A stretch of 18,913 bases of DNA from the IMG/VR virus record IMGVR_UViG_2671180298_000003, positions 1 to 18,913 of that record; one strand, written 5' to 3'. The position numbers were made by a program, and so were the translations under genes. A model generated the notes under the pieces. That model saw only the letters and a list, made by a program, of their open reading frames with translations. It had not been told where the DNA came from and searched no databases. Shown in pieces: positions 1,402 through 18,913 of this stretch. Within the stretch, counting starts at the first letter, position 1. The number at the start of each line of letters is the position of its first letter. This stretch comes from a virus (lineage: Duplodnaviria > Heunggongvirae > Uroviricota > Caudoviricetes).

Positions 1402-1613
1402 CAGAACCTCGCCAGCCGGTACCCAGGATGCCCCCGTCGTCGTGTAATCAGAGCCGCAAGGCGGCGCTCCCACTCCTGCCGTCCCTGCCGGATCTCAGAT
1501 AAGTTTTCCATGGTCATCTGCTGACCATTAAAGGTGACGGATTTTCCGTCCAGCACCGCCATTTCAGCTTCCGTATAACGCTGAATCATGGCTTCGATAT
1601 CATTCTGGTTCAT
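1401..1613 (-). CDS. Head-tail joining protein gpW family
   Basis: ORF 1401..1619; ATG at 1613 overlaps the terminase TGA (ATGA) with GGAGG 6 nt upstream; ~70 aa with C-terminal RRRGHPGY resembling lambda W (RRRGPAGF). Confidence 0.7.
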   Translation of the reverse strand: MNQNDIEAMIQRYTEAEMAVLDGKSVTFNGQQMTMENLSEIRQGRQEWERRLAALITRRRGHPGYRLARF

Positions 1614-3712: not shown

Positions 3713-4206
3713 TACTCCTCCTGCTGTAATTCCTCCTCATCATCCGCACCTGCTTCGGTCACCCGCAGGGCTATCTGATCGCGCAGATCATCAATAATGG
3801 ACTGAACACGGCTCACAGCGGCAGGCTGCAGGCCGCAGTCACGTTCCAGAATATCCGGTAATGTCTCCAGCACCTGCACGACCGCTTTTGCCCAGATGGC
3901 AAACTCCCGTCTGACATCACTGGCCGGAATGAGTTGTGCCGTTTCCTGTTCGAACTTAAGACGCTCACGTTCAGACTGATACCAGGCTTTGCGTTCATGT
4001 GGATCCATTTCGCCCTCAGCAACCGGCGGTGGTAACCCCATAAATTCAGTCAGAATATCGGTCAACCGGTATAGCTTGAGTTTGTCATGTCCACCAGCGG
4101 GACGAATGTTTTTCAGTCTTGCCACGACAGTCTGGCGGTGCAGACCAGATATCCGCATGCAGCTCGTCGTGATGCTTTCTGCACAAAGGCAACACAAAGA
4201 GGTCAT
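3712..4206 (-). CDS. Terminase small subunit (Nu1-like); start unresolved (GTG 4227 / ATG 4206 / ATG 4158)
   Basis: Immediately upstream of and coupled to the large subunit; HTH-like GLHRQTVVARL near the N-terminus, acidic C-terminal tail; the 5' end overlaps the upstream DUF968 gene in another frame. Confidence 0.6.
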   Translation of the reverse strand: MTSLCCLCAESITTSCMRISGLHRQTVVARLKNIRPAGGHDKLKLYRLTDILTEFMGLPPPVAEGEMDPHERKAWYQSERERLKFEQETAQLIPASDVRREFAIWAKAVVQVLETLPDILERDCGLQPAAVSRVQSIIDDLRDQIALRVTEAGADDEEELQQEE

Positions 4207-5056
4207 GCGCTTTAGTACCCATTCCACCCTGACCGTGACCTATCAGGTGGTGGGGATCATCAGCGGGCTTTCCACAACATGCACACGGCTGTGTCTTAAC
4301 CCAACGCGTGTACTTTTCATTAACCCAGCGGCGACGTTTTGGGCGTAACATAAAAGACTCCGGCGACTCCGGATCCACTTTCAGCGCCAGCACCTTTTTT
4401 GCCTTATCCTGGATGATGCTGGTGGCAGGAACCGAAGGCACAAGGTCACTTTCCCGGGTGACAGACGGCACAACAGGCTTTGGTAATCTCAGTGCCTTAC
4501 GGGCTGCACTTTCCGGTAAGGCATCCGCCAGGTCATTACGAATCAGCCACCAGCACAGTTCCGGCATTGTCACAACGTGACTATCATCAAAACCGAGATC
4601 CCGACGCACAACAGACAACACCCAGCGGGCACAGTTATCCGTTGCCATTGATTCCAGCCGTTCCGTGAACTGATCGCGCAGCTGGTTATCGCAGTGCCAG
4701 CACAGACGGATTGCGCCCGGCGCGTGTCGCATTGTTGTCATGTTCTCGCTGTGCCAGTCGGAATGAGGCCACTGGCAGCCTTTTTCACGAAGTAACCAGC
4801 TTTCAAGACATTCCACGCCACCAGCACGACGGATCACTGCCTCATTGCGGAACACGGCCCGAACGGCAGGATCATCCGCCAGCGGTTGTGATGCCGCCGG
4901 TACGGCACCACTGGCGAAAGATGAATAACGTTCCGGCTCAGGCTCCAGCAGGACACGCCCCTGCATAAACAGGGGCATCAGCTCTGAACCTGGTCTGAAC
5001 AATACGATCCCCATACGCGGGGCAATTTCAGGGGTCAGTAGTGCTCTCACGGTCAC
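4085..5056 (-). CDS. DUF968-like phage protein with C-terminal Cys/His (HNH-like) metal-binding motif
   Basis: 323-aa ORF; C-terminal PCACCGKP...HHLIGHGQGGMGTKAHD...PLCRKHHDELH motif; GTG start 1 nt after the KilA-N stop; family assignment from memory. Confidence 0.5.
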   Translation of the reverse strand: MTVRALLTPEIAPRMGIVLFRPGSELMPLFMQGRVLLEPEPERYSSFASGAVPAASQPLADDPAVRAVFRNEAVIRRAGGVECLESWLLREKGCQWPHSDWHSENMTTMRHAPGAIRLCWHCDNQLRDQFTERLESMATDNCARWVLSVVRRDLGFDDSHVVTMPELCWWLIRNDLADALPESAARKALRLPKPVVPSVTRESDLVPSVPATSIIQDKAKKVLALKVDPESPESFMLRPKRRRWVNEKYTRWVKTQPCACCGKPADDPHHLIGHGQGGMGTKAHDLFVLPLCRKHHDELHADIWSAPPDCRGKTEKHSSRWWT

Positions 5057-5057
5057 C

Positions 5058-5867
5058 TCAATGAACGGTATCGAGCAGCTTTAACAGCTCAGGGAATCGG
5101 GATTCGAAGAAATGCGGCTGCGTCTCGCGCGGATTGGCGGGACTGGTGATGTTCTTGCCGAACATGCAGCCTTTCGCTGTCAGCGACCAGAATTTTTTGA
5201 TGTTGTTAATCGCGGTACGGCTGTATCGTTCGCGCTGCTCGACGATCCCCAGCTTCACCATCTGGTGATATGCCTGATTAGCTGTCAGGCGGATACCATA
5301 CTGCTTCAGCAGTGCACTCAGTGACAGCGTGGGGCGGCTTGAGCCATCAGGCGCGTCAGCAGGAGCATCAATGGCATAGCGCGGTGCCAGATTCGGTAAG
5401 CCAACAGCCTCCTGGAGTTTCTGACAGGCACCAAGCACTGAAGAGTTAGACAGGTTTAATTCCCGGCGCATAAAGTCCAGCAGAATCACACCAGCCTGCA
5501 TCTTGTCAGCAGCCTGTCCGGATAATTTTTCCGGTGCGCTGGTTACCATGTCGAAAGTACGGATCACCTTCAGATGGAATGACGGGCTGATCCACATTGC
5601 ATAGGCATACACCAGTTCCTTGCAGACATACGTTCCCCGTTCATTTCCCCCATGAATCACACTCACCGGGTCAACACCCAAATTCTGGGTGTTGGTCAAT
5701 TCATGAACAAGCTCAACAGTTTGTTGGCTGGAAAGAAACTTTCCTGGCTCCTTGGTTCTGGCATTTGCACCAGATGCTACTGCTGCGCGATGCAGATCGT
5801 TCAGGCTGTAACGCCCATAAGCATCACGACGAACTTCAATACCATCAATGACCATCAGATTATTCAT
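5058..5867 (-). CDS. KilA-N domain-containing phage protein (antirepressor-like)
   Basis: 269-aa ORF; N-terminal KilA-N pattern (IDGIEVRRDAYGRYSLNDLHRAA ... GTYVCKELVYAYAMWISPSFHLKV); GAGGAG SD upstream of ATG. Confidence 0.7.
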   Translation of the reverse strand: MNNLMVIDGIEVRRDAYGRYSLNDLHRAAVASGANARTKEPGKFLSSQQTVELVHELTNTQNLGVDPVSVIHGGNERGTYVCKELVYAYAMWISPSFHLKVIRTFDMVTSAPEKLSGQAADKMQAGVILLDFMRRELNLSNSSVLGACQKLQEAVGLPNLAPRYAIDAPADAPDGSSRPTLSLSALLKQYGIRLTANQAYHQMVKLGIVEQRERYSRTAINNIKKFWSLTAKGCMFGKNITSPANPRETQPHFFESRFPELLKLLDTVH

Positions 5868-5886
5868 ACTTCGTTTCTCCTCTTAA

Positions 5887-6276
5887 TCAGGCGGCTGCAC
5901 CCGCCGGTTTCTCATACTTACTGATAGTGATCTCGACCTTCCCTTTCGGGATAACCGGTCCCCACTCCACCAGCATTCTTTTCACCTGTCTGTCGTCTTC
6001 CCACACACCCGCGTGGGTCAGGGCGTCAAACAGCGCCTTGTTATAGTTGTCCAGATCGCGGATCCGGTTATCCGGAGGAAACAACACGATCTCCACTGAA
6101 GCAGGTGCCGACGTTGGTTTCGGCAGACGACGTAACTGCTCAACTATTGCTGCGCACGCCGCGCTCTGAAATTTTCGCCCCGCCTCGCTTATCAGGCTCT
6201 TACCAGCAAATGCCCCTTTGTTGGGGTGTCGCCAGTACGTGTTCACGCTGGGCGGAAAAGGCAGTATTAGCTTCAT
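5887..6276 (-). CDS. rusA: Holliday junction resolvase RusA
   Basis: 129-aa ORF; RusA-like LPFPPSVNTYWR N-terminus and DLDNYNKALFDALTHAGVWEDD core; ATG overlaps the upstream stop (ATGA); GAGGGAG SD. Confidence 0.85.
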   Translation of the reverse strand: MKLILPFPPSVNTYWRHPNKGAFAGKSLISEAGRKFQSAACAAIVEQLRRLPKPTSAPASVEIVLFPPDNRIRDLDNYNKALFDALTHAGVWEDDRQVKRMLVEWGPVIPKGKVEITISKYEKPAGAAA

Positions 6277-6599
6277 ACTTTCAGCTCCCTCTCATGTAAC
6301 CAGTGGGCTGCACGCAGCCTGGCGTTTTCCTCACCGGCAAGCAGTGCGCGGATGATACCGACCGCTTCGCTGTCGTCGTCCTTCACCGCGGTATGAAGCG
6401 TGATCCCCCGGGCCACGCCACGCTTTATCGTGATGACGCCTTTTTTCTCCAGTGCGCGAAGATGCTCCACCGCTGCATTCACTGAACGGTATCCCAGCAT
6501 GGTTGCCACCTCCTGATTGGTTGGCGGGAAGCCACGTTCTTTCTGGTAAGAAATCAGCATATCCAGCACCTGCTGCTGGCATTGAGTTAACGTCGTCAT
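6273..6599 (-). CDS. LexA-family DNA-binding protein: N-terminal LexA winged-HTH domain only, no S24 peptidase domain
   Basis: 108-aa ORF; residues 1-70 align closely by eye with the E. coli LexA N-terminal domain (LTQCQQQVLDMLISYQKERGFPPT...GYRSVNAAVEHLRALEKKGVI...ARGI); ends 40 residues later with no Ser/Lys protease motifs; ATGA-coupled to Dam. Confidence 0.75.
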   Translation of the reverse strand: MTTLTQCQQQVLDMLISYQKERGFPPTNQEVATMLGYRSVNAAVEHLRALEKKGVITIKRGVARGITLHTAVKDDDSEAVGIIRALLAGEENARLRAAHWLHERELKV

Positions 6600-7249
6600 G
6601 CCGCCATCTCCCTGACCAGTTTTTCCGCCTGCTGGCGAACCTGCGCCAGAAAGGCCTCACCACATGCCTCAAGTTCATCGCGCCCGATGTAGCTGATTGC
6701 CGGTCCCTTCCAGGTCTTGTCGAAAACAGCAATAGCACCAGCGAAGAAAGCGCCTGTCGGCACCTGCTTCTCATCCTTCGGGATAAACCAGGCAGGCAGT
6801 TCAAAACCAATACGCCCGCGAATAAAAGCAATATGGTCTGCGTCTTCCGGCCACCACACTTCGCTGGTGGCAGCTTTGATCAGGAAAACATAGCGCCCGC
6901 CTTTATCACGCATGGAACTGGCATGCTTCATGATGTAACGCATGCCAGTGATGTATTGCCCCTCATGCTGACTGGCGCGGCTGTATGGGGGATTACCAAA
7001 GGCAGCCCCTTTAAGCTCCGCAAGACGTTCTGACCAGTCATGTGCCAGCGCGTTGTCTTCCGCCGTGTAATACGCGGCACATTTGGCGTTATCACCGTCA
7101 GTGAACAGATCCAGAACAAACGGACCAAACAGGGTGTTAATTCCCCAGAAAATGTTATCCGGCGTGCGCCACTGATCGCCCACTTCCTTCAGTTCATGGG
7201 CTGGTTTGTTCCGCAGTTCCACCAGCGCCTGGCAATATTTATTACTCAT
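6596..7249 (-). CDS. Phage Dam-family DNA N6-adenine methyltransferase
   Basis: NPPY catalytic motif (FGNPPYS) and N-terminal WRTP motif; ATG at 7249 with GGGGG SD, overlapping the PerC-like stop (TAATG); ORF-track start 7282 is probably an upstream extension. Confidence 0.8.
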   Translation of the reverse strand: MSNKYCQALVELRNKPAHELKEVGDQWRTPDNIFWGINTLFGPFVLDLFTDGDNAKCAAYYTAEDNALAHDWSERLAELKGAAFGNPPYSRASQHEGQYITGMRYIMKHASSMRDKGGRYVFLIKAATSEVWWPEDADHIAFIRGRIGFELPAWFIPKDEKQVPTGAFFAGAIAVFDKTWKGPAISYIGRDELEACGEAFLAQVRQQAEKLVREMAA

Positions 7250-7737
7250 TAAGCCCCCACGTAATTCCCTGACAGATACCACTCTTCACCTGATGCAGCC
7301 CGCTTATTGCTTTTCCGTAAACACCGTTCACGACGCGCCAGAAAATTATTTCGTTCTGGCTGGGAGTGGCTTTCACGGAATGCCGCCATCCACACCGTTG
7401 CAGCACGACGGTATAAGCCCCTGGACTCCAGTTCTTCCGCCTGGCGGGTCAGGCACAAAATCACCCGCGGGTCGTTAGTGCCGACATAGAAATTGCGCAC
7501 AGGTCTGGTTTCACGAACTGGTTGTGGTTCCGGCTCCTGCGCTCTCTCAGTCAGGCGTGGGAAATGTCTGCGTGTATCTCCTTCACAACGGTGAGCCACA
7601 CGCCCACTCTGACGTAACTTGCTTGCTGACTGCAGAACGCGCTGCCGTGAGTAACCTGCAAAAGCATCCGCAATGTCTCCGGAAGTACACCCCGGATGGG
7701 CTTCAATGAATTTCTGAACTTCATTCAAAAGACTCAT
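7249..7737 (-). CDS. PerC-family transcriptional activator-like protein (YfdN-like)
   Basis: C-terminal LESRGLYRRAATVWMAAF resembles the conserved PerC/Pch motif; ATG at 7737 (third codon of ORF) with GGGGG SD; 2 nt after the upstream TGA. Confidence 0.5.
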   Translation of the reverse strand: MSLLNEVQKFIEAHPGCTSGDIADAFAGYSRQRVLQSASKLRQSGRVAHRCEGDTRRHFPRLTERAQEPEPQPVRETRPVRNFYVGTNDPRVILCLTRQAEELESRGLYRRAATVWMAAFRESHSQPERNNFLARRERCLRKSNKRAASGEEWYLSGNYVGA

Positions 7738-7739
7738 GA

Positions 7740-8558
7740 TCACCCCCTGAATCCTGCCGGGATCTGGCTGTAGTCCACGTTGTCGTAACTGGCTTTGAAG
7801 TACGGGTCCTCACGTCTGGCTGCAGATACCGCAGGAACTTCCCAGGATTCTTCGAAATGACGATCCGGACCAAAGAACGTGACAGCCTGTTTCACAAATT
7901 GTGTGCCGCTGTTACCCATCGCAGATACCCAGCCTGCATAGCGTTTCACACCTTCCAGCATGGTTTCGGGGTTTACCCCCTCATTCAAACGGGCTTTCCA
8001 GGCTTTGAAGGCTGCTGATTTTGAATTGCCACCAGCACGTTTGGGGTATGCCAGCCATGCCTGCTCAAACTCCGGAGAGTATTCCGGTCGGTTTGAACGA
8101 ACTCGCACGGACTCATCAGCAGATGCACCAACAGCTATTGGTTCATTGACTGGTTCTTTGACTGGTTCAAAAGAGTGACTGGTTCTGGGTGAATCTCCTG
8201 CACTACCCCCTGGTGCAACTCCTGCACTACCTGGTGAATTTGCTGCACCAGATAGTGAATTATTTGCACTACCCCCTAGTGAATCTCCTGCACCATCCAG
8301 ATGAAGGAGATAGATATTACTTGAGTTACCTTTTTCACCTTTCCGGGTGACTTTTTTTACCAGCCCGGACTCACAAAGGGCCGCAATATGATTCATCACA
8401 GAACGTTTGCTAATCTCGCACTGGTCAGCAATATGCTGGTAGCTGGGCCAGCACTCCCCCTGATCGCTGGCATTATCAGCCAGCTTGATCAGAACCAGTT
8501 TTCGCAATGGATTACCCACTCGAATTTTCATCGCTTTAACCATCAGCTCCATACTCAT
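7740..8558 (-). CDS. Replication initiator / replisome organizer (lambda O-like, YfdO-like) with internal iteron-bearing linker
   Basis: 272 aa; N-terminal winged-HTH typical of phage replication proteins; Gly/Ser/Ala-rich linker encoded by direct nucleotide repeats; lies downstream of cro/CII-like genes. Confidence 0.6.
   Translation of the reverse strand: MSMELMVKAMKIRVGNPLRKLVLIKLADNASDQGECWPSYQHIADQCEISKRSVMNHIAALCESGLVKKVTRKGEKGNSSNIYLLHLDGAGDSLGGSANNSLSGAANSPGSAGVAPGGSAGDSPRTSHSFEPVKEPVNEPIAVGASADESVRVRSNRPEYSPEFEQAWLAYPKRAGGNSKSAAFKAWKARLNEGVNPETMLEGVKRYAGWVSAMGNSGTQFVKQAVTFFGPDRHFEESWEVPAVSAARREDPYFKASYDNVDYSQIPAGFRG
8189..8300. repeat. Putative replication origin: about five ~22-24-bp direct repeats (iterons, core cTGCACtacc...GTGAAt) inside the O-like gene, preceded by three gactggttc repeats (8147-8185)
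   Basis: Repeats read directly from sequence; arrangement parallels lambda ori inside gene O. Confidence 0.55.
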
Positions 8559-8779
8559 GCAGCACCTCCGAGATGCTTCATGTTTTTTCCGGAGCGAAAG
8601 GTTATAAGCGGCATACTGACGCGGTAACTACGGCCCAGCGGTTCACAAATCACCTTCTGACATTCACGGTCAACCAGGCTAACACGTAGAACATGCCCTG
8701 CAGGTGTGGTGTACCACTGACCCGGACGAGGACAACGGAAAGTCTGATTGGTAAACCGTTTGAAAATATTCCGGATCAT
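8555..8779 (-). CDS. Hypothetical small phage protein (74 aa)
   Basis: ORF bracketed by ATGA/ATGA overlaps with both neighbours, consistent with translational coupling; no recognisable domain. Confidence 0.4.
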   Translation of the reverse strand: MIRNIFKRFTNQTFRCPRPGQWYTTPAGHVLRVSLVDRECQKVICEPLGRSYRVSMPLITFRSGKNMKHLGGAA

Positions 8780-9924
8780 TTGCGCCCCCTTACCTCTGAA
8801 GGGTTCAGCGACAAATTTATGAGGCAGGCCAGTGCCGAAGCATCATTAATATAGTCATACAAGCTAACAGCCAGCGGAGATTCGGCTTTTGCCAACATAG
8901 GATAAAGCTGCTGCAGCCAGACCTGATGAATTGATGAAATGTAGGAATAGAGAACGCTGGCGTTATGTGCAACGTCGCTCGGTACAGGGGGTTTTGAAAG
9001 CTGTTTCTCCATCTGGTTAAAGGCATTGATATATGCCTCTTTGAACTGGGCAGCACGTTTACCCGTGAAACCCATAGCAAGAAACGCAAAGCCGTCGCGG
9101 GTTATTTGATAGCAAGGTAGTTTGCGGCCTGATGCGTCGATGTACTCACTGAGCTGAAAATTCAGCTCAGTAAATTCGGCAGAGCATTCAAGAGACGCAA
9201 TTTTTTGAATGACATTTTTGTGTTGTTTGCCGAAATAACTAGCAACAGCCAGAGAAGAAGTAACAACTTTGTCTGCAATAATGCAAAGTTCAGGTTGTAC
9301 TAAGGCAGGGATCGTAGCCATGATGGCAGCCTCCGTATGCAATGGATAACTTCCACCACCGGAAACGCCAATTTCGCTGGTGGTGAACTGAGCAGGGTTG
9401 GCGTAACCGGCGCATACGGAAACCGGCGCACCTTTCGGTGCCCCCACCCAGCCCACCATAATTTGGGTATAGCTGAGTTGTAGCAACAAAAAAGACGCTA
9501 ACGCGCCAATTGTCGCCGTATGCAATTCCAGGACGCCAATCCCGGCACCCGCTTTATAAGGTGCCTGAACAGTGTAACGTCCCGGAATGGCAGAATCAAT
9601 GTGCTGGTGGTCCTTCACACTCAACAAAATCACGCCTGAATTTCCACAAAGGACTAAAGCACTCATGCGGGTAGTCTTTGCGAAGATAGATAACGCGCTG
9701 TGTTTCTGGCTCCCAACGAATAACATGGACATAAAGCCCTCTTCCGTCACGAAACCAGCGGTTAAGTTCCTGCACAACTCGCCCCCCACAGTCAGGTAAA
9801 GTTCTCTGTGGTTACTTACAGCCAGGTGATCTGGTAATCTGCATTCATGCCGTAACAACAGGTGTTCAGCGACACTGACCACCAGCTGTTGCGACAAACG
9901 GTTATTTGCCGTTAAACTGTTCAT
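8776..9924 (-). CDS. Rha-family phage regulatory protein with ~200-aa N-terminal extension; nested in-frame start at 9321 would give a 181-aa Rha-only product (8776..9321)
   Basis: C-terminal 181 aa begins MATIPALV and carries the Rha signature GFAFLAMGFTGKRAAQFKEAYINAFNQME; GGAGG SD 8 nt upstream of internal ATG 9321; upstream ATG 9924 overlaps the stop of the preceding gene (ATGA) and the frame stays open for 201 codons. Confidence 0.65.
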   Translation of the reverse strand: MNSLTANNRLSQQLVVSVAEHLLLRHECRLPDHLAVSNHRELYLTVGGELCRNLTAGFVTEEGFMSMLFVGSQKHSALSIFAKTTRMSALVLCGNSGVILLSVKDHQHIDSAIPGRYTVQAPYKAGAGIGVLELHTATIGALASFLLLQLSYTQIMVGWVGAPKGAPVSVCAGYANPAQFTTSEIGVSGGGSYPLHTEAAIMATIPALVQPELCIIADKVVTSSLAVASYFGKQHKNVIQKIASLECSAEFTELNFQLSEYIDASGRKLPCYQITRDGFAFLAMGFTGKRAAQFKEAYINAFNQMEKQLSKPPVPSDVAHNASVLYSYISSIHQVWLQQLYPMLAKAESPLAVSLYDYINDASALACLINLSLNPSEVRGRK

Positions 9925-10472
9925 GCGTTAGTTTCTCCACAGACACAAAACGCCACGACGCCCGGAGCTGCACACTCGCGGGCGTCACTCTTTTCTGGAG
10001 CGCAGAAGATTTTGTAGACCAGTGCTGCATGCTCCTGGAGCTTCGAAATTGACAGATACAACTCATCATTAATTGCTGTCTGCTCGTGTGGCTCCACGAC
10101 CCCATCTTCGATTGCCGAACGAATCTGCTTTGAGTAATTCCCGATCTGTTCGATGACTTCCAGCAGGCGCTGGTTTATATCGGCGTTCTCTACTTCCTCA
10201 ATTTCAGGAAGCGATACGAACACCCCACCGGCAGACTGTGCGACAGCATCCGCAATGTAGTGAGTGCCAGCCGCGCGCTGTAAAACCATTGCCCATCCCA
10301 GCGGGAAAATCTGATCGCCATCTGCACGAAGGCGGTTGAATAAAGCGTTCTCTGTTACATCCAGCCAGTCAGCAGCTTCAGCGTAACCCCCAGGCAATGC
10401 CGCGATAGTTTTTCTGACAGCTTTCACGTACCACTCAGGTTGTTTTTCCACTTTCCAGTGATGCTTACCCAC
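9921..10472 (-). CDS. Putative CII-like (CP76-type) phage regulatory protein
   Basis: 183-aa ORF directly after cro; GTG start with GGAGG SD 6 nt upstream; HTH-like segment GGYAEAADWLDVTENALFNRL; family assignment tentative. Confidence 0.4.
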   Translation of the reverse strand: MGKHHWKVEKQPEWYVKAVRKTIAALPGGYAEAADWLDVTENALFNRLRADGDQIFPLGWAMVLQRAAGTHYIADAVAQSAGGVFVSLPEIEEVENADINQRLLEVIEQIGNYSKQIRSAIEDGVVEPHEQTAINDELYLSISKLQEHAALVYKIFCAPEKSDARECAAPGVVAFCVCGETNA

Positions 10473-10725
10473 GGCTTACCTCCTGTTCCTGTGGTTTAAA
10501 CCCATTCTGGTTTTGGCTAGATTGAAAACGTGCCGGATAAAGAATCTGCATTTCGCTGATTTCACCCTTAAAAAAATTGGCCAGACGTTCTGCAAGATCG
10601 ATAGATGGAATTTGTTCCAGTCTTTCAATACGACTCAGCGTCGCTGGATTGACCTGAACGCCCGCAGCAACATGCTGCAAAGTAAATCCGTGCGCCTTAC
10701 GCACATTTCGTAATGGTGATTGCAT
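10465..10725 (-). CDS. cro: Cro-like XRE-family HTH repressor
   Basis: 86 aa; HTH FTLQHVAAGVQVNPATLSRIERLEQ; divergent from cI across an operator-rich 97-bp spacer; GGAGG SD 5 nt upstream. Confidence 0.75.
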   Translation of the reverse strand: MQSPLRNVRKAHGFTLQHVAAGVQVNPATLSRIERLEQIPSIDLAERLANFFKGEISEMQILYPARFQSSQNQNGFKPQEQEVSRG

Positions 10726-10822
10726 ATAACCTCCACATATTGCGTGATGAGCATATTATTTCACGCAAATATTTTGCGCAAGTTGATTTGCTTAACGCGC
10801 AATAAAGAAATGTAATAAACGC
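10726..10822. promoter_or_regulatory. Immunity switch region (OR-like): divergent cro and cI promoters with operator-like sites
   Basis: TTGCTTAACGCGCAA (10788-10802, TTGC-N7-GCAA), palindromic TTGCGCAA (10774-10781), inverted repeat TTGCGTGA...TCACGCAA (10740-10768); putative -35 TTGCTT / -10 TGTAAT ending at the cI ATG. Confidence 0.6.
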
Positions 10823-11515
10823 ATGAACATAGGAAACCGAGTCAGACAACTTCGCCAGGCGAAGAACATGAAAATCGCCGATCTCGCTGAAGCAATAGGA
10901 GTGGATGCGGCGAATATCTCGCGCCTGGAAACAGGTAAGCAGAAACAATTCACTGAACAAGCCCTGAGTAATATTGCCAGGAGCTTAGGTGTTGATATTG
11001 CTGATCTCTTTACCTCAGACGTCAAAAGTAATACTGTATGTAAAAACAGTATTAGTGAGGATGTTGCGCAGGTGAAGGATGTATTCCGTATTGAAATGCT
11101 GGATGTCAGTGCCAGTGCGGGAAATGGCCTTATCCAGGGCGGTGATGTCATTGATGTGATTCATGCCATTGAATACAGAACTGATAATGCTGTATCGATG
11201 TTTGGCGGACGACCAGCCAATCACATTAAAGTTATCAACGTTCGTGGGGACAGTATGTGTCCAACCATTGAGCCAGGAGATCTCATCTTCGTTGATATCA
11301 GTATCAATCAGTTTGATGGGGATGGTATATATGTATTTGGTTTTGATGATAAAATTTACGTCAAACGACTGCAAATGATACCTGATAAACTGCTGGTAAT
11401 TTCTGATAATCAGATTTACCGCGAATGGGGAATTACCAGCGAAAACGAACATCGGTTTATGGTCTTTGGAAAGGTCTTAATCAGTCAGTCACAAACCCTT
11501 AAGCGACACAATTAA
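10823..11515 (+). CDS. cI: CI-type prophage repressor (N-terminal XRE HTH, C-terminal S24 LexA-like peptidase)
   Basis: 230 aa; HTH MKIADLAEAIGVDAANISRLETGK; Ala-Gly cleavage site (SASAGNG); catalytic Ser in GDSM and Lys in YVKRL. Confidence 0.9.
   Translation: MNIGNRVRQLRQAKNMKIADLAEAIGVDAANISRLETGKQKQFTEQALSNIARSLGVDIADLFTSDVKSNTVCKNSISEDVAQVKDVFRIEMLDVSASAGNGLIQGGDVIDVIHAIEYRTDNAVSMFGGRPANHIKVINVRGDSMCPTIEPGDLIFVDISINQFDGDGIYVFGFDDKIYVKRLQMIPDKLLVISDNQIYREWGITSENEHRFMVFGKVLISQSQTLKRHN
11032..11051. promoter_or_regulatory. LexA/SOS-box-like palindrome TACTGTATGTAAAAACAGTA inside the cI coding sequence
   Basis: Perfect CTGT-N8-ACAG with TA flanks and AT-rich spacer; only such site found in a manual scan of the window. 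Confidence 0.4.
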
Positions 11516-11536
11516 CCCCCTACCTCAACATCAATT

Positions 11537-11558
11537 AGCCACCAGAAGGTGGCTTTTC
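11537..11558 (+). terminator. Rho-independent terminator downstream of cI
   Basis: Hairpin AGCCACC-agaa-GGTGGCT followed by TTTT, 22 nt after the cI stop. Confidence 0.6.
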
Positions 11559-11571
11559 ATTACCCACCAAA

Positions 11572-11610
11572 TTGCATATCTCGCAATAAAAACACTTGCA
11601 TAATGCGCAA
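11572..11610. promoter_or_regulatory. OL-like operator pair / probable early-left promoter region
   Basis: Two TTGC-N7-GCAA sites (TTGCATATCTCGCAA 11572-11586; TTGCATAATGCGCAA 11596-11610) matching the motif in the cI/cro spacer. Confidence 0.5.
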
Positions 11611-12055
11611 CTTCATTTTATCTTTCTTTCCAGACCTACAAACAAGGTACTAACAAAATTTGGTTGTAACACGGCGTATGGCACATGCGTCGTTAGCGGT
11701 CTGGGGACGTTAAAGGGGACAATCCACTCCTTGCTCGGGCAAACAAACCAGGTAGCCGGAATGTGCAAGTCAATGATGATGCTGATAAGACGCCTAACCA
11801 GCGTGGCGATTCGGTTTGACGCCTGGGAAGAGACCAGGGTGCAACGATGAGGGCATTTATGGAGCCGCGACAAAGTGTGGTGCCGTAACTGGCTAAGTGC
11901 TCTCAGCGTTGTGGTGAATGCGCAGGCTGATGCGCGAAAGACATTGCAGCTATTGCGGAAAAGAGCTGTTCGGCGGGGCAATTAAACGCCCGTGAGAGTC
12001 TGAAATAACCGCAAGCCGGAGATCAGCACCGGTCACCACAACAGCCACTGCTTTG

Positions 12056-12101
12056 GCGGTACCAGTTTGTACACTTGCTTCCGGCTGGTACCGCTCTTTT
12101 T
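12056..12101 (+). terminator. Terminator-like hairpin in early-left leader, overlapping a boxA-like CGCTCTTTTTAC
   Basis: Perfect 10-bp stem GCGGTACCAG/CTGGTACCGC, 19-nt loop, then TCTTTTT. Confidence 0.4.
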
Positions 12102-12238
12102 ACAAAACAGAGAAGAGCATCACCGGACGACGGGCTCATAACCCAATCCATCCGGGCGGCTGCCACCGCAGGTGTTCTTCTCTGTTTTGTGGAGAAACCA
12201 ACCGACCTTGCAGGGTCGATATGATGAGGAGCAGCAAA

Positions 12239-12601
12239 ATGGCTAGCGAACGCAGTACTGATGTGCAGGCATTTATCGGGGAGCTGGACGGCGGCGTATT
12301 TGAAACCAAAATCGGCGCAGTTCTCAGTGAAGTCGCTTCAGGTGTGATGAACACGAAAACCAAAGGTAAGGTCTCACTCAACCTGGAAATCGAACCATTT
12401 GATGAGAACCGTGTGAAAATCAAACACAAACTCTCATATGTTCGCCCGACTAACCGCGGGAAAATTTCCGAAGAAGACACCACCGAAACGCCGATGTATG
12501 TCAATCGCGGTGGTCGCCTGACTATTCTGCAGGAAGACCAGGGACAATTACTGACTCTTGCCGGTGAACCTGACGGAAAACTACGCGCAGCAGGTCATTA
12601 A
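12239..12601 (+). CDS. Hypothetical early phage protein (YfdP-like, 120 aa)
   Basis: AGGAG SD 7 nt upstream of ATG 12239; ORF-track upstream extension (TTG at 12053) crosses leader hairpins and lacks an RBS. Confidence 0.6.
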   Translation: MASERSTDVQAFIGELDGGVFETKIGAVLSEVASGVMNTKTKGKVSLNLEIEPFDENRVKIKHKLSYVRPTNRGKISEEDTTETPMYVNRGGRLTILQEDQGQLLTLAGEPDGKLRAAGH

Positions 12602-12666
12602 TATCGTTCTTAATTAACTGATTATTTATCTCATCACTGAATATCTTTATATAGTGAGGACTTATT

Positions 12667-13491
12667 ATGTCTCAGAACTTAGACGCAACCGCAATTAATC
12701 AAATCCATGCCCTTATTTCTGCTCAGGGTGTTAATGAAATTATCAGTAAGATTGGTGCCGATGCTGTGGCATTGCCTGAGAATTTCCGCATTCATGATCT
12801 GGAAAAATTTAATTTAAATCGCTTCCGTTTCCGTGGTGCGCTTTCCACTGCCAACATCGATGACTTTACCCGTTATTCTAAAGATCTTGCAGATGAAGGC
12901 ACCCGCTGCTTTATCGATGCTGATAATATGCGTGCCGTCAGTGTACTTAACCTGGGTACTATTGATGAACCAGGTCACGCAGATAACACCGCCACTCTCA
13001 AACTGAAAAAGACAGCACCGTTCTCTGCCCTGTTGTCTGTTAACGGCGAGCGTAACTCCCAGAAGTCACTGGCAGAATGGATTGAAGACTGGGCCGACTA
13101 CCTTGTGGGCTTTGATGCTAATGGTGACGCTATTCAGGCAACAAAAGCGGCTGCGGCAGTCCGTAAAATCACGATTGAAGCAAACCAGACCGCTGATTTT
13201 GAAGATAATGACTTCAGCGGCAAACGCTCCCTGATGGAATCTGTCGAAGCGAAGACCAAAGACATTATGCCAGTGGCATTTGAATTTAAATGCGTTCCGT
13301 TTGAAGGTCTGAAAGAACGTCCGTTTAAATTACGCCTCAGCATTATCACTGGCGATCGTCCTGTACTGGTTCTGCGCATTATTCAGCTGGAAGCGGTGCA
13401 GGAAGATATGGCTAACGAATTTCGTGATCTGCTTGTTGAGAAATTCAAAGACAGCAAAGTAGAAACCTTTATTGGTACTTTCACCGCCTGA
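12667..13491 (+). CDS. yfdQ: YfdQ-like protein (DUF2303 family), function unknown
   Basis: 274 aa, same length and operon position as CPS-53 YfdQ; GAGGA SD upstream; family call from memory. Confidence 0.6.
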
Positions 13492-13503
13492 TTTCATTAC
13501 TGC

Positions 13504-13527
13504 AAATGCCCCTGCGGGGGCATTTAT
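13504..13527 (+). terminator. Intra-operon rho-independent terminator/attenuator
   Basis: AAATGCCCC-tgcg-GGGGCATTT hairpin followed by AT-rich tail, 13 nt after the yfdQ-like stop. Confidence 0.55.
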
Positions 13528-13618
13528 GGAAACGTAATTAACTCAATAATCACCGGATGGTGAGGGCTTCCTTTTACCCAAACTCAGCGCGGTGCAGCGC
13601 ATATACGTGGAGAACAAA

Positions 13619-14155
13619 ATGTCATTTATTAAAACTTTTTCCGGGAAGCATTTTTATTATGACAAGATAAATAAAGACGACATCGTGATTAACGATATCG
13701 CGGTTTCCCTTTCAAATATCTGCCGCTTTGCCGGTCATCTTTCTCACTTCTACAGTGTCGCCCAACATGCGGTGCTTTGCAGCCAGCTGGTGCCGCAGGA
13801 ATTTGCTTTTGAAGCGTTAATGCATGATGCAACAGAAGCGTATTGCCAGGATATTCCCGCTCCACTGAAACGCCTTCTTCCTGACTATAAACGGATGGAA
13901 GAAAAAATTGACGCCGTAATCCGTGAGAAATACGGGTTACCCCCAGTTATGAGTACGCCCGTGAAATATGCCGATCTTATCATGCTGGCAACCGAACGCC
14001 GCGATCTCGGGCTTGATGATGGCTCTTTCTGGCCTGTACTGGAAGGCATCCCGGCAACAGAGATGTTCAACGTGATTCCACTGGCACCTAGCCATGCCTA
14101 CGGGATGTTTATGGAACGTTTTAACGAGTTATCGGAGTTACGCAAATGCGCATGA
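13619..14155 (+). CDS. yfdR: HD-domain phosphohydrolase, YfdR-like 5'-deoxynucleotidase
   Basis: 178 aa from ATG 13619 (GGAG SD); HD signature H...HD (SVAQHAV ... LMHDATEA); ORF-track GTG start at 13592 is probably an extension. Confidence 0.7.
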   Translation: MSFIKTFSGKHFYYDKINKDDIVINDIAVSLSNICRFAGHLSHFYSVAQHAVLCSQLVPQEFAFEALMHDATEAYCQDIPAPLKRLLPDYKRMEEKIDAVIREKYGLPPVMSTPVKYADLIMLATERRDLGLDDGSFWPVLEGIPATEMFNVIPLAPSHAYGMFMERFNELSELRKCA

Positions 14156-14508
14156 ATGTTTTCGAAATGGAAGGGTTTCTTCGCGGGAAATGTGTACCGC
14201 GAGATCTGAAAGTGAACGAAACAAATGCTGAGTACCTGGTACGTAAATTCGACGCGCTTGAAGCTAAATGTGCGGCACTGGAAAACAAAATAATACCAGT
14301 GTCAGCTGAACTGCCACCAGCAAATGAAAGTGTTCTGTTATTTGATGCTAACGGAGAAGGCTGGCTGATTGGCTGGCGTTCTCTCTGGTACACTTGGGGA
14401 CAAAAAGAAACCGGAGAATGGCAGTGGACATTTCAGGTCGGGGACCTTGAAAACTTCAATATCACTCACTGGGCAGTAATGCCAAAAGCGCCGGAGGCTG
14501 GAGCATAA
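14146..14508 (+). CDS. DUF551-like phage protein (YfdS-like)
   Basis: 120 aa; C-terminal ITHWAVMPKAPE motif; GGAG SD; overlaps upstream stop. Confidence 0.55.
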   Translation: MRMNVFEMEGFLRGKCVPRDLKVNETNAEYLVRKFDALEAKCAALENKIIPVSAELPPANESVLLFDANGEGWLIGWRSLWYTWGQKETGEWQWTFQVGDLENFNITHWAVMPKAPEAGA

Positions 14509-15128
14509 TGACCACATTTACCAATAAAGAACTGATTAAAGAAATCAAAGAACGAATCAGCAGCCTAGAGGTTCGAGACGATATTGAGCGCCGTGCTTAT
14601 GAAATTGCTCTGGCATCGCTAGAAGAGGAGCCGGTGGCATGGCTGCATTCAGAAAATGGCTTAGGTATTCCGGCAATAACGAGGAGTAAAAACATTGCTG
14701 ACAGTTGGTTATCAAAGGGCTGGTATGTTCAGCCGCTATATATAGCCAAGCCAGTGCCGGTGGTGCCAGATGCTCGTCCGTCTTTAAATAATGGCATAGT
14801 CGGCTTTGATGAAGGCTGGAACGCCTGCCGCGCCGCCATGCTTAATGGTGCCGAACCTGTAAGCCAGACTTACAAGTTGAACGAGCTGTCGGGCAACTCT
14901 CCGGTAACTCCGGATGGTTGGATAAGCTGTAGTGAGCGAATGCCGAACGATAAACAGTATGTTTGGTGTTGGGGTAAGTCTTACGGCTGGACTGAGTGCG
15001 ATACCTTCGAAGGGTATTACGATTGTTCGAGAAACAAATGGTGGGCAGTTACTGACAATGGGGAAGAACCGGCATCGAAAGTAACCCACTGGATGCCGCT
15101 ACCGGAGCCACCGCAGGAGGTGAAGTAA
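14508..15128 (+). CDS. DUF551-domain phage protein (YfdT-like, longer form)
   Basis: 206 aa; C-terminal W...ERMP...VTHWMPLPEPP motif; TAATG overlap with upstream gene. Confidence 0.55.
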   Translation: MTTFTNKELIKEIKERISSLEVRDDIERRAYEIALASLEEEPVAWLHSENGLGIPAITRSKNIADSWLSKGWYVQPLYIAKPVPVVPDARPSLNNGIVGFDEGWNACRAAMLNGAEPVSQTYKLNELSGNSPVTPDGWISCSERMPNDKQYVWCWGKSYGWTECDTFEGYYDCSRNKWWAVTDNGEEPASKVTHWMPLPEPPQEVK

Positions 15129-15322
15129 TGAACAACTTAATGACAACTAAACAAGTCGCCGACTTCTGTGGCGTTTCAGTATCGACCGTTCTTCGCTGGA
15201 ACAGCGTAAACAGGAGAACTGGCCAGAAATACAGGCCAGACTTTCCAGATCCTGATATTAAATCATGCCCAAATAAATGGGCATCACGCAAGATTTACAA
15301 ATTTGCGGGAGTTATTGAGTAA
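15128..15322 (+). CDS. Excisionase-like HTH DNA-binding protein (AlpA/TorI family)
   Basis: 64 aa; HTH MTTKQVADFCGVSVSTVLRW; strong AGGAGGTGA SD; last gene of early-left operon, facing the integrase. Confidence 0.7.
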   Translation: MNNLMTTKQVADFCGVSVSTVLRWNSVNRRTGQKYRPDFPDPDIKSCPNKWASRKIYKFAGVIE

Positions 15323-15357
15323 CGAGCATTAGCTCAGATGAGAGTTGGTACACCTAT

Positions 15358-15398
15358 GGCACAGAGCTAAACCTGATCTGTTATATTCGCTCTGTGCC
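15358..15398. repeat. Perfect 10-bp inverted repeat GGCACAGAGC / GCTCTGTGCC with 21-nt spacer between convergent genes
   Basis: Read directly from sequence; nested TAGCTC/GAGCTA repeat at 15330-15369; no U-tract on either strand. Confidence 0.4.
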
Positions 15399-15429
15399 GG
15401 AAGTATGCCATATTTATTACATACAGTTG

Positions 15430-17562
15430 TCAATCTTTAAGACTAATTGTGATTGCATCTGGAAATCCAATTTGGCTATAGCACATAGTTTCGGTTATGA
15501 ATAATTTTCTATCGATAAAATCAAGTACATCTTTTTTCGTGAGCCCCGTTAACATCGTCAATTTGTTAATTACATAATCATACCAATCATGGTGAAGCAT
15601 GTTTATATACATGTTAATATCAACTGCATCTTTCTTCCATGAGTTATTCGGTATCAAATCTTCAGATAAAAATCCTCTTATTAAATCGCTTGCATAGGAC
15701 ATCCTAAGAAAAACAGAAAGAAAAAGCCTTACATTAACATGTGTAAAATTTGTAGATAGCGTCGAAGGAAACTCGTAAAACCGGTAGATCAACCGACTTA
15801 CAAACACAGCAGAGTCTATCGCATTTACTGGCAGTAATGTTCCGATGACACTTAATGCACCACTTATAACGAAGCCATTAGCAACAGAGGCATGAGAACC
15901 GCTTAGGGCAGATGTTAAACATGCACTCAGAATTACGATAGGAGGAATTCTTGCTATTTTTCTCAAACTCCAAGTGTCCACTTTATCCTCACCTATTATT
16001 AACCATCCATGACTCCCATTGCCATCATGGTTTCCATGACAATCCATAACAAGAATATGACCTTGATATTGATTTAGAGCATCAATAAACTCAGCTTTCG
16101 ATCTAACATCAATAATCTCGCAATCAAGATCTGGCATCTGTTTTTTAAATATCTCAATTGCGTTCTCTAATATGAACTTTAAGTGATCATCAGGCTCAAA
16201 AGAACGTATAACTAAAACCTTTCTCAACTCAGATGCTTTTACTAAAACGCGCGGAAAAGCAGAGGCGCTCTGTAGAAGAACGTTACCAGGCGTAGCATTT
16301 ATTCTTGATATCTCATGACTGAACATTATAGGTATGTTATTAAACCTAATCCAATCCAATGGTACATCACAAACAAAGGACAAATCGCTATAGTTTTTAC
16401 TTATATATGTTCTCAACTTGCAACCAAGGGCTCTTCGAATAACAGTATTGAATGCTTTAGATTTAGTGATGAATGCTTCACTATTTATCCCAGAAGAAGT
16501 TGCAAGATCTTCAAGATTTTTCAAATAATTGGAGTAATGATTTATTGCATTTGGCAATCTTATTGCTGGGATTTTTTTATTTATGCTAAATAAAGTAATC
16601 GCAGCTGTTGTTAATCGCATTTCAGCGCGTCTTAGTGAGGTGAGGTAACGGAAAGCAGGACTTTTAAAAAGTTCTTTTCTATCTGAATTTATATCAAGTC
16701 TAATTCCAGAATAGCCAGGATTCCTCAACACTCCATCAATAAGGAATTTTTTCTCAATTGTGGATAAATTTTCCGTTATTAACTCATAAAAGTCATTATT
16801 TTTATCATATAAAAAAGAGTGCATACCCGGAGCAAAAAGTAAGACTTCCGTTGGAAGTGGTATATCTAATTCCTTTAAACATTCGGTGTATGCATCAACG
16901 CTATGAAGTATTATTTCTATAAACTCTCTTTTGCTACTACCATCTTTAATTCTTTTTGGTGGAGATAGCATATAGCCAAGTGATTCAATTAACAACTCAT
17001 TGGGTAGTGTTGAATTGTTAAGCGTCGATCTCCAAGGTGATTTATTAAATAAAGCCCCTCTTCGCTTCAACTTCGTTGATATTTTCTTTTCACTGTGATT
17101 TTTTCTTATTTTATCCTCAATGAATTTCAACCGAGAGAAGAGCACCTTATCAAATGAGTATATACTATTAATCTTATTAAGTGGTAGATCAGCGCGTTTA
17201 GAATTGCAACAAATTATAGGTGGTATAGCAAAATGTTTTTTTAAAGCACAAACATACGAAAAATCTTCTTTAGCACAAAAAATTAAGCAAAATGGCGTTT
17301 GATAAATATTTGGTATTTTTTCAAGATTTTCTTTAGATATTAAAAAAATAGGATTTAGCCCGCTTAGAGTAGGCTGAAAGTTATCATTTTCATTGACAAA
17401 AATCTCACTAATTTCTTTTGGTGTTTTGGCCAATAAAAAAAGAATGTTGGATATCTCTGGGTTGAGGAGGCCAGTATCGAAACCTTGGATTATGGTTTGT
17501 TCCCCAGTAGTAGGCATGATTACAACTTTAAGTATCGCCCCGTGTTCCTGTAACAGTTCCAT
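15430..17562 (-). CDS. CHAT (caspase-like) protease domain protein with ~470-aa uncharacterised N-terminal region; candidate phage-defence/abortive-infection cargo
   Basis: ATG at 17562 with AGGA SD 6 nt upstream (ORF-track TTG at 17619 adds 19 hydrophobic residues); caspase/CHAT His-Cys dyad context ILVMDCHGNHDGNGSHGWLIIGED ... IPPIVILSACLTSALSG ... GALSVIGTLLPVN; strongly AT-rich relative to flanks. Confidence 0.7.
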   Translation of the reverse strand: MELLQEHGAILKVVIMPTTGEQTIIQGFDTGLLNPEISNILFLLAKTPKEISEIFVNENDNFQPTLSGLNPIFLISKENLEKIPNIYQTPFCLIFCAKEDFSYVCALKKHFAIPPIICCNSKRADLPLNKINSIYSFDKVLFSRLKFIEDKIRKNHSEKKISTKLKRRGALFNKSPWRSTLNNSTLPNELLIESLGYMLSPPKRIKDGSSKREFIEIILHSVDAYTECLKELDIPLPTEVLLFAPGMHSFLYDKNNDFYELITENLSTIEKKFLIDGVLRNPGYSGIRLDINSDRKELFKSPAFRYLTSLRRAEMRLTTAAITLFSINKKIPAIRLPNAINHYSNYLKNLEDLATSSGINSEAFITKSKAFNTVIRRALGCKLRTYISKNYSDLSFVCDVPLDWIRFNNIPIMFSHEISRINATPGNVLLQSASAFPRVLVKASELRKVLVIRSFEPDDHLKFILENAIEIFKKQMPDLDCEIIDVRSKAEFIDALNQYQGHILVMDCHGNHDGNGSHGWLIIGEDKVDTWSLRKIARIPPIVILSACLTSALSGSHASVANGFVISGALSVIGTLLPVNAIDSAVFVSRLIYRFYEFPSTLSTNFTHVNVRLFLSVFLRMSYASDLIRGFLSEDLIPNNSWKKDAVDINMYINMLHHDWYDYVINKLTMLTGLTKKDVLDFIDRKLFITETMCYSQIGFPDAITISLKD

Positions 17563-17645
17563 CAAAAATCCTAATAAACAAATAAAAATGTTATAATCAA
17601 AAACTGCAAGGATTAGCAAGCAATTCTTACAGTTTTAAGAAGGGG

Positions 17646-17671
17646 ATTATACCGCAATATGCATAATTGCG
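17646..17671 (-). promoter_or_regulatory. Putative promoter of the CHAT gene: perfect -10 TATAAT (minus strand) abutting a 19-bp palindrome CGCAATATGCATAATTGCG
   Basis: Read from sequence; palindrome occupies the -35/spacer position; no good -35 hexamer. Confidence 0.4.
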
Positions 17672-17695
17672 TTCTGCCTATGCAAAATGTCAGTT

Positions 17696-18913
17696 CTAGT
17701 CTGAACAAGTACAAGTAACTATCGATTCAACCCTCTCCCACCACGCCTGGTAAGCTTTACGCTGTTCTTCTAAATAATCGCTCTTGTCATAAACCTGCCA
17801 TACCCCTGGCAGTTTATGACCGAGCATTATTTCTGCAATATGAGGCGCAGTAAGATCAGAAAAGTTTGTTCGTGCTGTTCGTCTCAAATCATGAAGAGAC
17901 CAATGAGGGAATTGATACCCCAAACGCCGCCATGCGTACTGCATTAAATTGTAAGGCAGCGACTGCAATGATGTCCGTCCAACGGGCTCCCTGCTTCCTT
18001 CCTTAGTAAAAAGCATATCGGAACCATTGTTCATAGAGATAACGTACTTTATAAGCTCTTCAACCGGTTCAATAATGGGGCGCTTTAGCGGTTCGCCTGT
18101 TATATCCCCTGTCTTATGTCGTTCTGGCGGTACAGTCCATACCTTATTTATGAAATCAAAATCATCCACCCTAGCAGTAATTAGCTCCGAACTACGGCAA
18201 CCAAAATGCAGTAATAGTTTAATGAAGGCCCGGTATTTGGGAACCATTCTAGAGCCATCGATCGCAGCATAAAGAATTTTAATTTCATCGTGTGTCAGAA
18301 ACCGTTTCTTCTGACCTTTACGGATATCCATATCTTTACCCGTGATATCCGACAGCGGGCGAGTTTCAATAAGCTTTCTCTTATACGCCCAGACATGGGC
18401 CTGCTTTGCGTTAATTAGCAATCGGTCTGCTATTGCTGGAGTCTTAGTGCTAAGAGGCTCCAAGACTTCTAACCAATCATGCAATGTAGCTGCATCGTGA
18501 GGGATATTCCCGATTTTAGAGAACAGGTGCAGCTCAAACGAGCGGAGTATCTGTTCAGAACCCTTTTTATTTTTTACACAATATGCTTCATACCAGGCAC
18601 GGATCACAGACTCTACCGTCATGGCTTCAGTAGCTTTTCGTTTTTCAGCCTGCTTGACCAATCGTGGATTACGGTTTGACTCGAGTTCACCACGGAGACG
18701 GATAACTTCTTCTCTGGCCTCTTTTAATCCAGTTGCCGGGTAAGTTCCGATATCAAGACGCTCACCTTTCCCTGCCCATTGATAACGATATTGGAACACT
18801 ACGCGACCTTTCGGTGATACTCTGACAGACAGACCATCACGATCGGATTTAACCAAAACCTTATCACGTTCCTTTCCAACGACTGAACGCAACCACGCAT
18901 CAGACAGCGCCAT
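17696..18913 (-). CDS. int: Tyrosine-type site-specific integrase, P4-like family
   Basis: 405 aa; N-terminal arm-binding-type domain (GLSVRVSPKGRVVFQYRYQWAGKGERLDIGTYP); C-terminal catalytic residues (HDLRRT ... Y); start codon is the last three bases of the window. Confidence 0.85.
   Translation of the reverse strand: MALSDAWLRSVVGKERDKVLVKSDRDGLSVRVSPKGRVVFQYRYQWAGKGERLDIGTYPATGLKEAREEVIRLRGELESNRNPRLVKQAEKRKATEAMTVESVIRAWYEAYCVKNKKGSEQILRSFELHLFSKIGNIPHDAATLHDWLEVLEPLSTKTPAIADRLLINAKQAHVWAYKRKLIETRPLSDITGKDMDIRKGQKKRFLTHDEIKILYAAIDGSRMVPKYRAFIKLLLHFGCRSSELITARVDDFDFINKVWTVPPERHKTGDITGEPLKRPIIEPVEELIKYVISMNNGSDMLFTKEGSREPVGRTSLQSLPYNLMQYAWRRLGYQFPHWSLHDLRRTARTNFSDLTAPHIAEIMLGHKLPGVWQVYDKSDYLEEQRKAYQAWWERVESIVTCTCSD

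Follow-up and report, generated by a model that had tools for sequence, protein, structure and literature searches.

What do the yfdP, yfdQ, yfdR and yfdS genes do for a lambda-like phage when they stand in the early-left operon at the place where lambda has exo, bet and gam? We addressed this question in the virus record IMGVR_UViG_2671180298_000003 (Caudoviricetes), of which the whole stretch analysed, positions 1 to 18,913 (18,913 nucleotides, nt), is called the window below. The initial annotation of this DNA had read the six open reading frames (ORFs) at 12239-15322 as an operon of YfdP/Q/R/S/T-like genes, including an HD-domain 5'-deoxynucleotidase, lying in place of recombination genes, and had proposed that an early nucleotide phosphatase reshapes nucleotide pools or acts in counter-defence. 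Our findings favour another role. The yfdPQRS genes would be an accessory module that does not stand in for a recombination system, with YfdR and its partners damping the activity of DnaA and with recombination left to the host RecBCD enzyme at the many Chi sites of the phage; we hold this account to be rather likely.

The early-left operon and its missing recombination genes

The six ORFs, all on the plus strand, have the coordinates that they were first given:

12239-12601, plus strand: yfdP, 120 amino acids (aa); PHROG 204 at E=1e-49; 119/120 residues identical to K-12 YfdP
12667-13491, plus strand: yfdQ, 274 aa, DUF2303; Pfam PF10065 at 308 bits against a cut-off of 26.6, over residues 7-272; 272/274 residues identical to the K-12 protein
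13619-14155, plus strand: yfdR, 178 aa, HD protein; PHROG 318 at E=3e-111; 176/178 residues identical to K-12 YfdR
14146-14508, plus strand: yfdS, 120 aa, DUF551; Pfam PF04448 at 22.6 bits against a cut-off of 22 (borderline); PHROG 583 at E=4e-82; 119/120 residues identical to the K-12 protein
14508-15128, plus strand: a 206-aa DUF551 protein; Pfam DUF551 at 67.4 bits (cut-off 22), over residues 137-203; PHROG 60 at E=8e-63
15128-15322, plus strand: excisionase, 64 aa, the final gene of the operon; PHROG 1553 at E=9e-36

Profile searches returned the DUF2303, HD and DUF551 families that had been named at the outset, and the operon does end in an excisionase, as proposed and as the PHROG assignment shows; the matches of this last protein to HTH_17/MerR (Pfam) and Xis (TIGR01764) are weak and below cut-off. 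YfdP has no match in Pfam, NCBIfam or PADLOC. For yfdR the ATG at 13619 gives 178 aa, and an in-frame GTG at 13592 offers an alternative start that would give 187 aa. The Yfd naming holds for P, Q, R and S, which are 99% identical to their K-12 counterparts and can be recognised by this identity as orthologues of the yfdPQRS genes of the K-12 prophage CPS-53. It does not hold for T: the fifth protein aligns with K-12 YfdT over residues 1-42 alone (40/42), and its C-terminal DUF551 domain is absent from YfdT. In related phage records the counterparts of this gene are labelled 'Eae protein' or 'Ea22'. Because the genes overlap or abut, with the yfdS start overlapping the yfdR end by 10 nt and ATGA overlaps at both ends of the gene for the 206-aa protein, yfdR to xis is one tightly packed unit. 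Judged by its gene content and order, the whole is the yfdP-yfdQ-yfdR-yfdS(-DUF551)-xis early-left operon that is standard in lambdoid phages of the SfV/mEp460/ST64B type.

Searches of Pfam and PHROGs assigned none of the ORFs lying between cI and xis to a Red-beta/RecT/Erf/Sak, Exo or Gam/Abc family, and the reported absence of exo/bet/gam is borne out within these limits. Who, then, recombines the phage DNA? The Chi content of the window points to the host. Where chance would give 0.65 copies, the window has 15 Chi sites (GCTGGTGG), and none of 200 shuffles had more than 4. Fourteen of the sites lie at 56-9886, among the early-right and packaging genes, with 10 on the minus strand; the fifteenth is inside yfdS (14314-14321, minus strand). 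From gene order, the minus strand would be the 'top', putatively active strand in lambda orientation, and it carries 11 of the 15 sites; this strand bias is weak by itself, but the density is not. An analysis of 325 lambdoid genomes has described a class without a recombination (Rec) module, rich in Chi and growing better with RecBCD, and has placed homologues of yfdR, yfdQ and yfdP in the early-left operons of LLS and ST64B (Genome Res 2025; PMC12315714). Like this LLS type ('no Rec module, many Chi'), which includes ST64B, the window has homologues of yfdP, yfdQ and yfdR and lacks an annealing protein, an exonuclease and a RecBCD inhibitor. It is also alike in its very high, top-strand-biased Chi content, a likeness that in a partial genome and deletion derivative does not extend to a judgement of total Chi number or of RecBCD dependence. 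Thus, because it has no Rec genes and 15 Chi sites where 0.65 are expected, the window fits the 'no Rec module, high Chi' class, and its Chi content supports the explanation published for the lack of a Rec module. The wording 'in place of recombination genes' is correct for position; as a functional substitution it fails, since the same genes also occur in phages with a full Rec module (PMC12315714) and the window is rich in Chi.

Could YfdP and YfdQ, perhaps with the HD protein, still form an unrecognised single-strand-annealing or DNA-end-handling system that replaces exo/bet/gam? The module sits at the operon position of the lambda Rec genes, and YfdQ, for which 617 homologues were detected, has a homologue in PDB entry 9O7M ('YfdQ Protein'; E=7e-44, profile E=1e-58). 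Because this entry has 36 chains, the YfdQ family forms a very large homo-oligomer, and annealing proteins often form large homo-oligomers. Our literature search found no source paper for 9O7M. In K-12, deletion of yfdQ confers weak sensitivity to methyl methanesulfonate and hydrogen peroxide (PMC4776307). Yet some phages have the yfdPQR cluster in addition to a complete Rec module encoded separately, and the study that describes them deems hidden recombination proteins unlikely for this reason (PMC12315714); Burkholderia phage JC1, in whose virions a DUF2303 protein was detected, has RecT and YqaJ besides it (PMC9144972). The strong Chi enrichment likewise argues that recombination is delegated to RecBCD. 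Predicted structure adds to this: an AlphaFold2 model of YfdQ, built from a 33-sequence alignment and of moderate confidence (predicted local distance difference test, pLDDT, 76), had no PDB fold match at E<=0.001 in Foldseek, annealing proteins included. In BFVD the same model matched DUF2303 or unnamed phage proteins only, reaching as far as actinophages, and the candidate role of YfdQ as a recombinase was rejected as unsupported. Overall, we regard a concealed annealing system as very improbable.

YfdR between DnaA and nucleotide chemistry

Interference with DnaA is the sole experimentally supported activity of the module, and it was seen with the K-12 proteins. Noguchi and Katayama (2016) found that yfdQRST in multicopy suppresses over-initiation; purified YfdR binds DnaA domain I, DnaA Phe46 matters for this binding, and YfdR competes with DiaA and DnaB (PMC4776307). 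In the same work oriC initiation was blocked by multicopy yfdQ and yfdR together with either yfdS or yfdT, extracts enriched in YfdQRST inhibited oriC replication in vitro, and yfdP was dispensable for the DnaA-related phenotype in K-12; the authors proposed that the genes ancestrally acted as lambda P does, itself a DnaA inhibitor (PMC4776307). Drawing on these published results for proteins 99% identical to those of the window, we suggest the following course. Once the repressor is lifted, YfdR would bind DnaA domain I at the Phe46 surface, which DiaA and DnaB also use, and YfdR, YfdQ and one downstream small protein (YfdS or YfdT in K-12) would damp host oriC initiation. This damping would serve as a host-takeover step, with an outcome comparable to that of lambda P on DnaA. 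YfdR would probably also keep a phosphohydrolase activity, reported to be weak on nucleotides, and the recombination needed for growth would be supplied by host RecBCD at the many Chi sites of the phage. The likeness to lambda P is one of outcome only, both being small DnaA-binding inhibitors of host initiation with no kinship in sequence or fold; lambda P contacts domain III of DnaA and doubles as the helicase loader, whereas YfdR needs YfdQ and YfdS or YfdT in vivo. A second analogy, again with no kinship in sequence or fold, is Bacillus subtilis SirA, a DnaA-directed inhibitor that uses the residue equivalent to Phe46 (PMC4776307).

Several points weigh against this account. The DnaA effect is seen on multicopy or overexpression only, deleting yfdQRST gave no replication phenotype, and its authors concede that an overexpression artefact may be at work (PMC4776307). 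A DnaA role explains neither the DUF2303 protein in JC1 virions nor the 36-chain assembly. The HD gene can act alone, because it is found in Mu-like and Pseudomonas phages that have no yfdP or yfdQ. Finally, what is visible is 18.9 kb of prophage, and of a deletion derivative.

How much of an enzyme is YfdR? Residues H50, H69, D70, E73, D78 and D119 are conserved at 98.6-100% across the YfdR of the window and 70 homologues (~40-100% identity), and because of this conservation some phosphohydrolase activity is probably kept under selection. YfdR matches PDB 2GZ4 (Atu1052) at E=4e-14, with the HD residues aligned. With YfbR, the Escherichia coli 5'-deoxynucleotidase, it has in common the HD superfamily and the pattern H...HD..E....D...D, the residue spacing of which in YfbR we take to match that in YfdR. 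It differs from YfbR in falling under the curated thresholds, with 24.2 bits against a cut-off of 25.9 for the Pfam YfbR-like family PF12917 and 19.8 bits against 122 for the NCBIfam equivalog NF003009, and it is closer in sequence to Atu1052. As the work of Zimmerman (2008) is cited in PMC4776307, the nucleotide affinity of YfdR is much lower than that of YfbR.

Such conservation bears on a different reading, namely that YfdR is mainly an early phosphatase of deoxyribonucleoside 5'-monophosphates (dNMPs) or other nucleotides, which remodels the pools in aid of phage replication and binds DnaA only incidentally. The metal-ligand and catalytic-type residues listed above, invariant or nearly so, are what this reading would expect, and the family is labelled accordingly: PHROG 318 carries the name 'deoxyribonucleoside 5' monophosphate phosphatase', and RefSeq uses 5'-deoxynucleotidase. 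The independent travels of the HD gene also favour it, since without yfdP and yfdQ the gene lies beside Sak4, a Cas4 exonuclease, a helicase and a primase in a Pseudomonas phage, and occurs again in a Mu-like Klebsiella phage. Against it stand the missed YfbR cut-offs; we consider nucleotide-pool remodelling unlikely as the principal function, although not negligibly so.

The remaining proposal is that the HD enzyme, alone or with YfdQ or YfdP, destroys nucleotide immune signals or counters a nucleotide-depleting defence. Its support is circumstantial: the position of the genes suits early expression, the HD site is conserved, the block is very widespread in E. coli prophages, and the defence gene BovA lies beside the operon. 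On the other side, no likeness to a known anti-defence enzyme emerged from Pfam, PHROGs, PDB or BFVD, a search made with no dedicated anti-defence library; the literature on yfdR, yfdQ, yfdP and DUF2303 yielded no such role; and the one partner found by experiment is DnaA (PMC4776307). The five operon proteins have no PADLOC defence-system match, a result that is neutral here, since PADLOC excludes anti-defence proteins. We therefore rate counter-defence as highly improbable. The early dNMP phosphatase put forward initially, whether for reshaping pools or for counter-defence, finds no support beyond the conserved HD residues, while the K-12 literature points to DnaA (PMC4776307), and the idea remains speculation.

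Control region and structured leader RNA

Is the module expressed early? The 720-nt stretch between cI and yfdP holds no credible ORF. A terminator-like hairpin follows cI at 11537-11554, and beyond it come the first of the features that concern us:

11572-11586 and 11596-11610: two 15-nt operator-like palindromes, TTGCATATCTCGCAA and TTGCATAATGCGCAA, of TTGC-N7-GCAA form, just past the cI terminator hairpin
12056-12100, plus strand: terminator-like hairpin GCGGTACCAG...CTGGTACCGC followed by TCTTTTT, from sequence and RNA fold, directly abutting the leader RNA
12102-12190, plus strand: structured leader RNA, ending ~50 nt 5' of the yfdP start codon

The palindrome motif (repeat family D1) recurs in the cI-cro spacer at 10788-10802, and the palindromes have the arrangement expected of a left operator and promoter (OL/pL) and a right operator (OR). 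The pair after cI would be the putative OL/pL of the early-left operon, the position of the promoter being deduced from theirs. Because the palindromes after cI and in the cI-cro spacer match the OL/pL and OR layout, the yfdP-xis operon is very probably repressor-controlled and early. The operon placement given at first agrees with this: the genes are transcribed away from a LexA-like cI, and the operator-like palindromes precede them.

Between these sites and yfdP lies a leader of 620 nt. A gene for an N-like or other protein in it was considered and rejected, the ORFs there being short or started by TTG only. Taken whole, the leader folds better than its shuffles (z=-4.8). Its first part after the palindromes, 11620-12056 on the plus strand (~440 nt, from the putative pL to the terminator-like hairpin), has no credible ORF, is identical in mEp460, cannot be aligned with ST64B, and could be a separate short transcript.

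The second part is the structured RNA, for which RNAfold on 12030-12240 gives a very stable fold (z=-6.5). An outer stem (18 predicted pairs, ~20 bp) encloses an inner arm with the loop GGG-CUCAUAA-CCC and a small, variable hairpin. Its core, GACGGGCTCATNNYCCAATCCA, is present in >120 viral contigs, a lower bound, and in nearly all homologous loci the hairpin and T-run precede it. Among the matches listed, a YfdP homologue (50-100% identity) starts 100-140 nt past the core motif in 89 of 131 instances. In an alignment of 18 non-redundant sequences, 97.2% of the cells are paired, against 38-50% with slid partners, and both sides have changed at 7 of 32 pairs (e.g. G-C in 12 and C-G in 6 sequences, or A-U in 10 and G-C in 7); the observed covariation score was reached by none of 500 shuffles. 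The covariation extends over phages of Escherichia, Salmonella, Klebsiella and Pantoea. The G-U pairs and the covariance model, which scores 100 bits on the plus strand against 45 on the minus strand, favour a transcript read in the same sense as the operon, and the structured part is non-coding, because the length differences among the 18 aligned homologues include some that are not multiples of three.

What kind of RNA is this? Its loop CUCAUAA with the closing GGG/CCC pairs equals the anticodon arm of the E. coli initiator tRNA. No Rfam family matches it at E<=1, and ARAGORN calls no tRNA. The Klebsiella phages GZ7 and Chronis have a sister form (2509-2578 of each stretch examined), ~70 nt long, in which a 6-bp acceptor-like stem is combined with an (A/G)CCA tail. 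It belongs to the late region of these phages and comes directly after tRNA genes, with Q on one side and the lysis genes on the other; a related copy lies in Pantoea phage PA-1 (1497-1590 of the stretch examined). The sister form likewise has no credible Rfam match, to tRNA or to any other family, and in the Klebsiella phages it lacks D and T arms recognisable to tRNA finders. We tentatively raise the possibility, somewhat short of an even bet in our estimation, that the leader RNA belongs to a new class of tRNA-like phage RNAs, one that controls the yfdPQR module or accompanies it. The real role of the module, be it takeover of the host or an interplay with defence directed at tRNA or nucleotides, would then still be undiscovered. 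The RNA could serve RNase P or RNase III as a processing site, control translation or transcription, or act as a tRNA decoy. The RNA does not seem to have been described so far, and a covarying, tRNA-like leader found in >100 viral contigs and absent from Rfam may deserve a study of its own. A separate candidate, an antiterminator RNA like put of HK022, was discarded: the covariance model matches nothing in HK022 20-40.7 kb, which rules out likeness in sequence and structure, not functional analogy.

Relatives and state of the prophage

The gene block itself is already known: it is annotated in thousands of genomes, RefSeq has the names yfdP, yfdQ, yfdR and yfdS in use, and the best-studied copy is in E. 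coli K-12. Of 5426 complete E. coli genomes, 3970 match at least part of a 3.4-kb stretch of the locus and 473 match >=80% of it; the stretch also matches 432 phage records, Stx2c-converting phages, cdtI, 2H10 and Ayreon among them. With the block annotated and the link between missing Rec modules and Chi published in 2025, the observation as first stated adds nothing new. Phage T5 was not among the 40 phage records listed, a spread sample of 333 matching ones, and we make no claim on kinship with T5 Dmp.

The copy in K-12 CPS-53 (KplE1) has yfdP, yfdQ, yfdR and yfdS in the same order, on one strand and with the same spacing, and its DNA is 98.2% identical over window positions 12220-14632. 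It differs upstream and downstream. Homology begins at 12220 and K-12 has no repressor, promoter, leader or RNA element, whereas the window keeps cI, the operator-like sites, the 620-nt leader and the structured RNA. The fifth gene encodes the 101-aa YfdT in K-12 and the 206-aa DUF551 protein in the window; moreover, the excisionase of the window is not TorI-like, and the integrase type differs too, as far as can be said short of a detailed comparison. The K-12 spacer upstream of yfdP (9247-9605 of the K-12 stretch examined) is unrelated to window 11516-12238, and the host factor SrsR binds this spacer, which replaced the native upstream region of yfdP (PMC9181523). Because the native promoter, leader and RNA element have given way to an SrsR-binding spacer, results on yfdPQRST expression from K-12 may not carry over to intact phages. 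The contrast drawn at first, an intact operon here against relics of the flanking modules in K-12, needs correction: the K-12 yfdPQRS genes are also intact, what K-12 lacks being the native upstream part, and the prophage of the window is itself defective.

Closer relatives are found among viable phages. The leader of mEp460 (NC_019716) is 100% identical to that of the window, PhiR47_1 (PV340566) is 97-99% identical to window 20-11923 and 12034-14879, and both have the same immunity region and yfdPQRS block. They differ in carrying Q, tRNAs and lysis genes that the window is missing, extra genes (Ea22-like, small exonuclease) between yfdS and xis, and other cargo near int. As viable phages that keep the native promoter and leader, they offer a better system for experiments than the K-12 copy, which has lost its upstream part. 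In Salmonella phage ST64B the P-Q-R triad and a long upstream leader are kept, with proteins ~67% identical to those of the window.

The window represents one end of a lambda-like prophage, and outside the operon it has the following features:

1610-3712, minus strand: large terminase; the gene for a DUF1441 protein is also on the minus strand
minus strand, past terminase and DUF1441 in order of rising coordinates: DUF968/HNH, KilA-N, RusA, a LexA-like DNA-binding protein, Dam methylase and PerC
minus strand, after PerC in rising coordinates: replication protein, Rha/Ash antirepressor and YmfL-like protein
10465-10725, minus strand: Cro-like helix-turn-helix protein
10823-11515, plus strand: cI repressor, LexA/S24-type
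15430-17619, minus strand: BovA-like low-GC gene, between xis and int
17696-18913, minus strand: tyrosine integrase

At 4150/4151 there is a deletion junction, with 4.8 kb missing relative to the viable PhiR47_1. The deletion takes out Q, four tRNAs, S (holin), R (lysozyme) and Rz, leaves the DUF968 and DUF1441 genes fused or truncated, and from gene order has probably removed cos as well. Because Q, the tRNAs and the lysis genes are gone, the prophage is, on this comparison of sequences, a defective deletion derivative.

Two further observations concern other parts of the window. The gene at 15430-17619 (minus strand, GC 32-40%) encodes a 729-aa protein with a CHAT domain (Pfam), which PADLOC matches at E=2e-241 to BovA of Borvo, an anti-phage defence system. 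The cargo at this place between xis and int varies among related phages, being PanT/PanA in PhiR47_1 and BovA in the window. On the early-right side, two Rfam RNAs lie inside the 5' part of the Ash/Rha antirepressor ORF, a C4 antisense RNA at 9376-9463 (minus strand, 80.7 bits) and an isrK RNA at 9488-9564 (minus strand, 61.2 bits). Together they suggest an antirepressor module of P1/P7 type under antisense control, the ORF of which may begin later than annotated.

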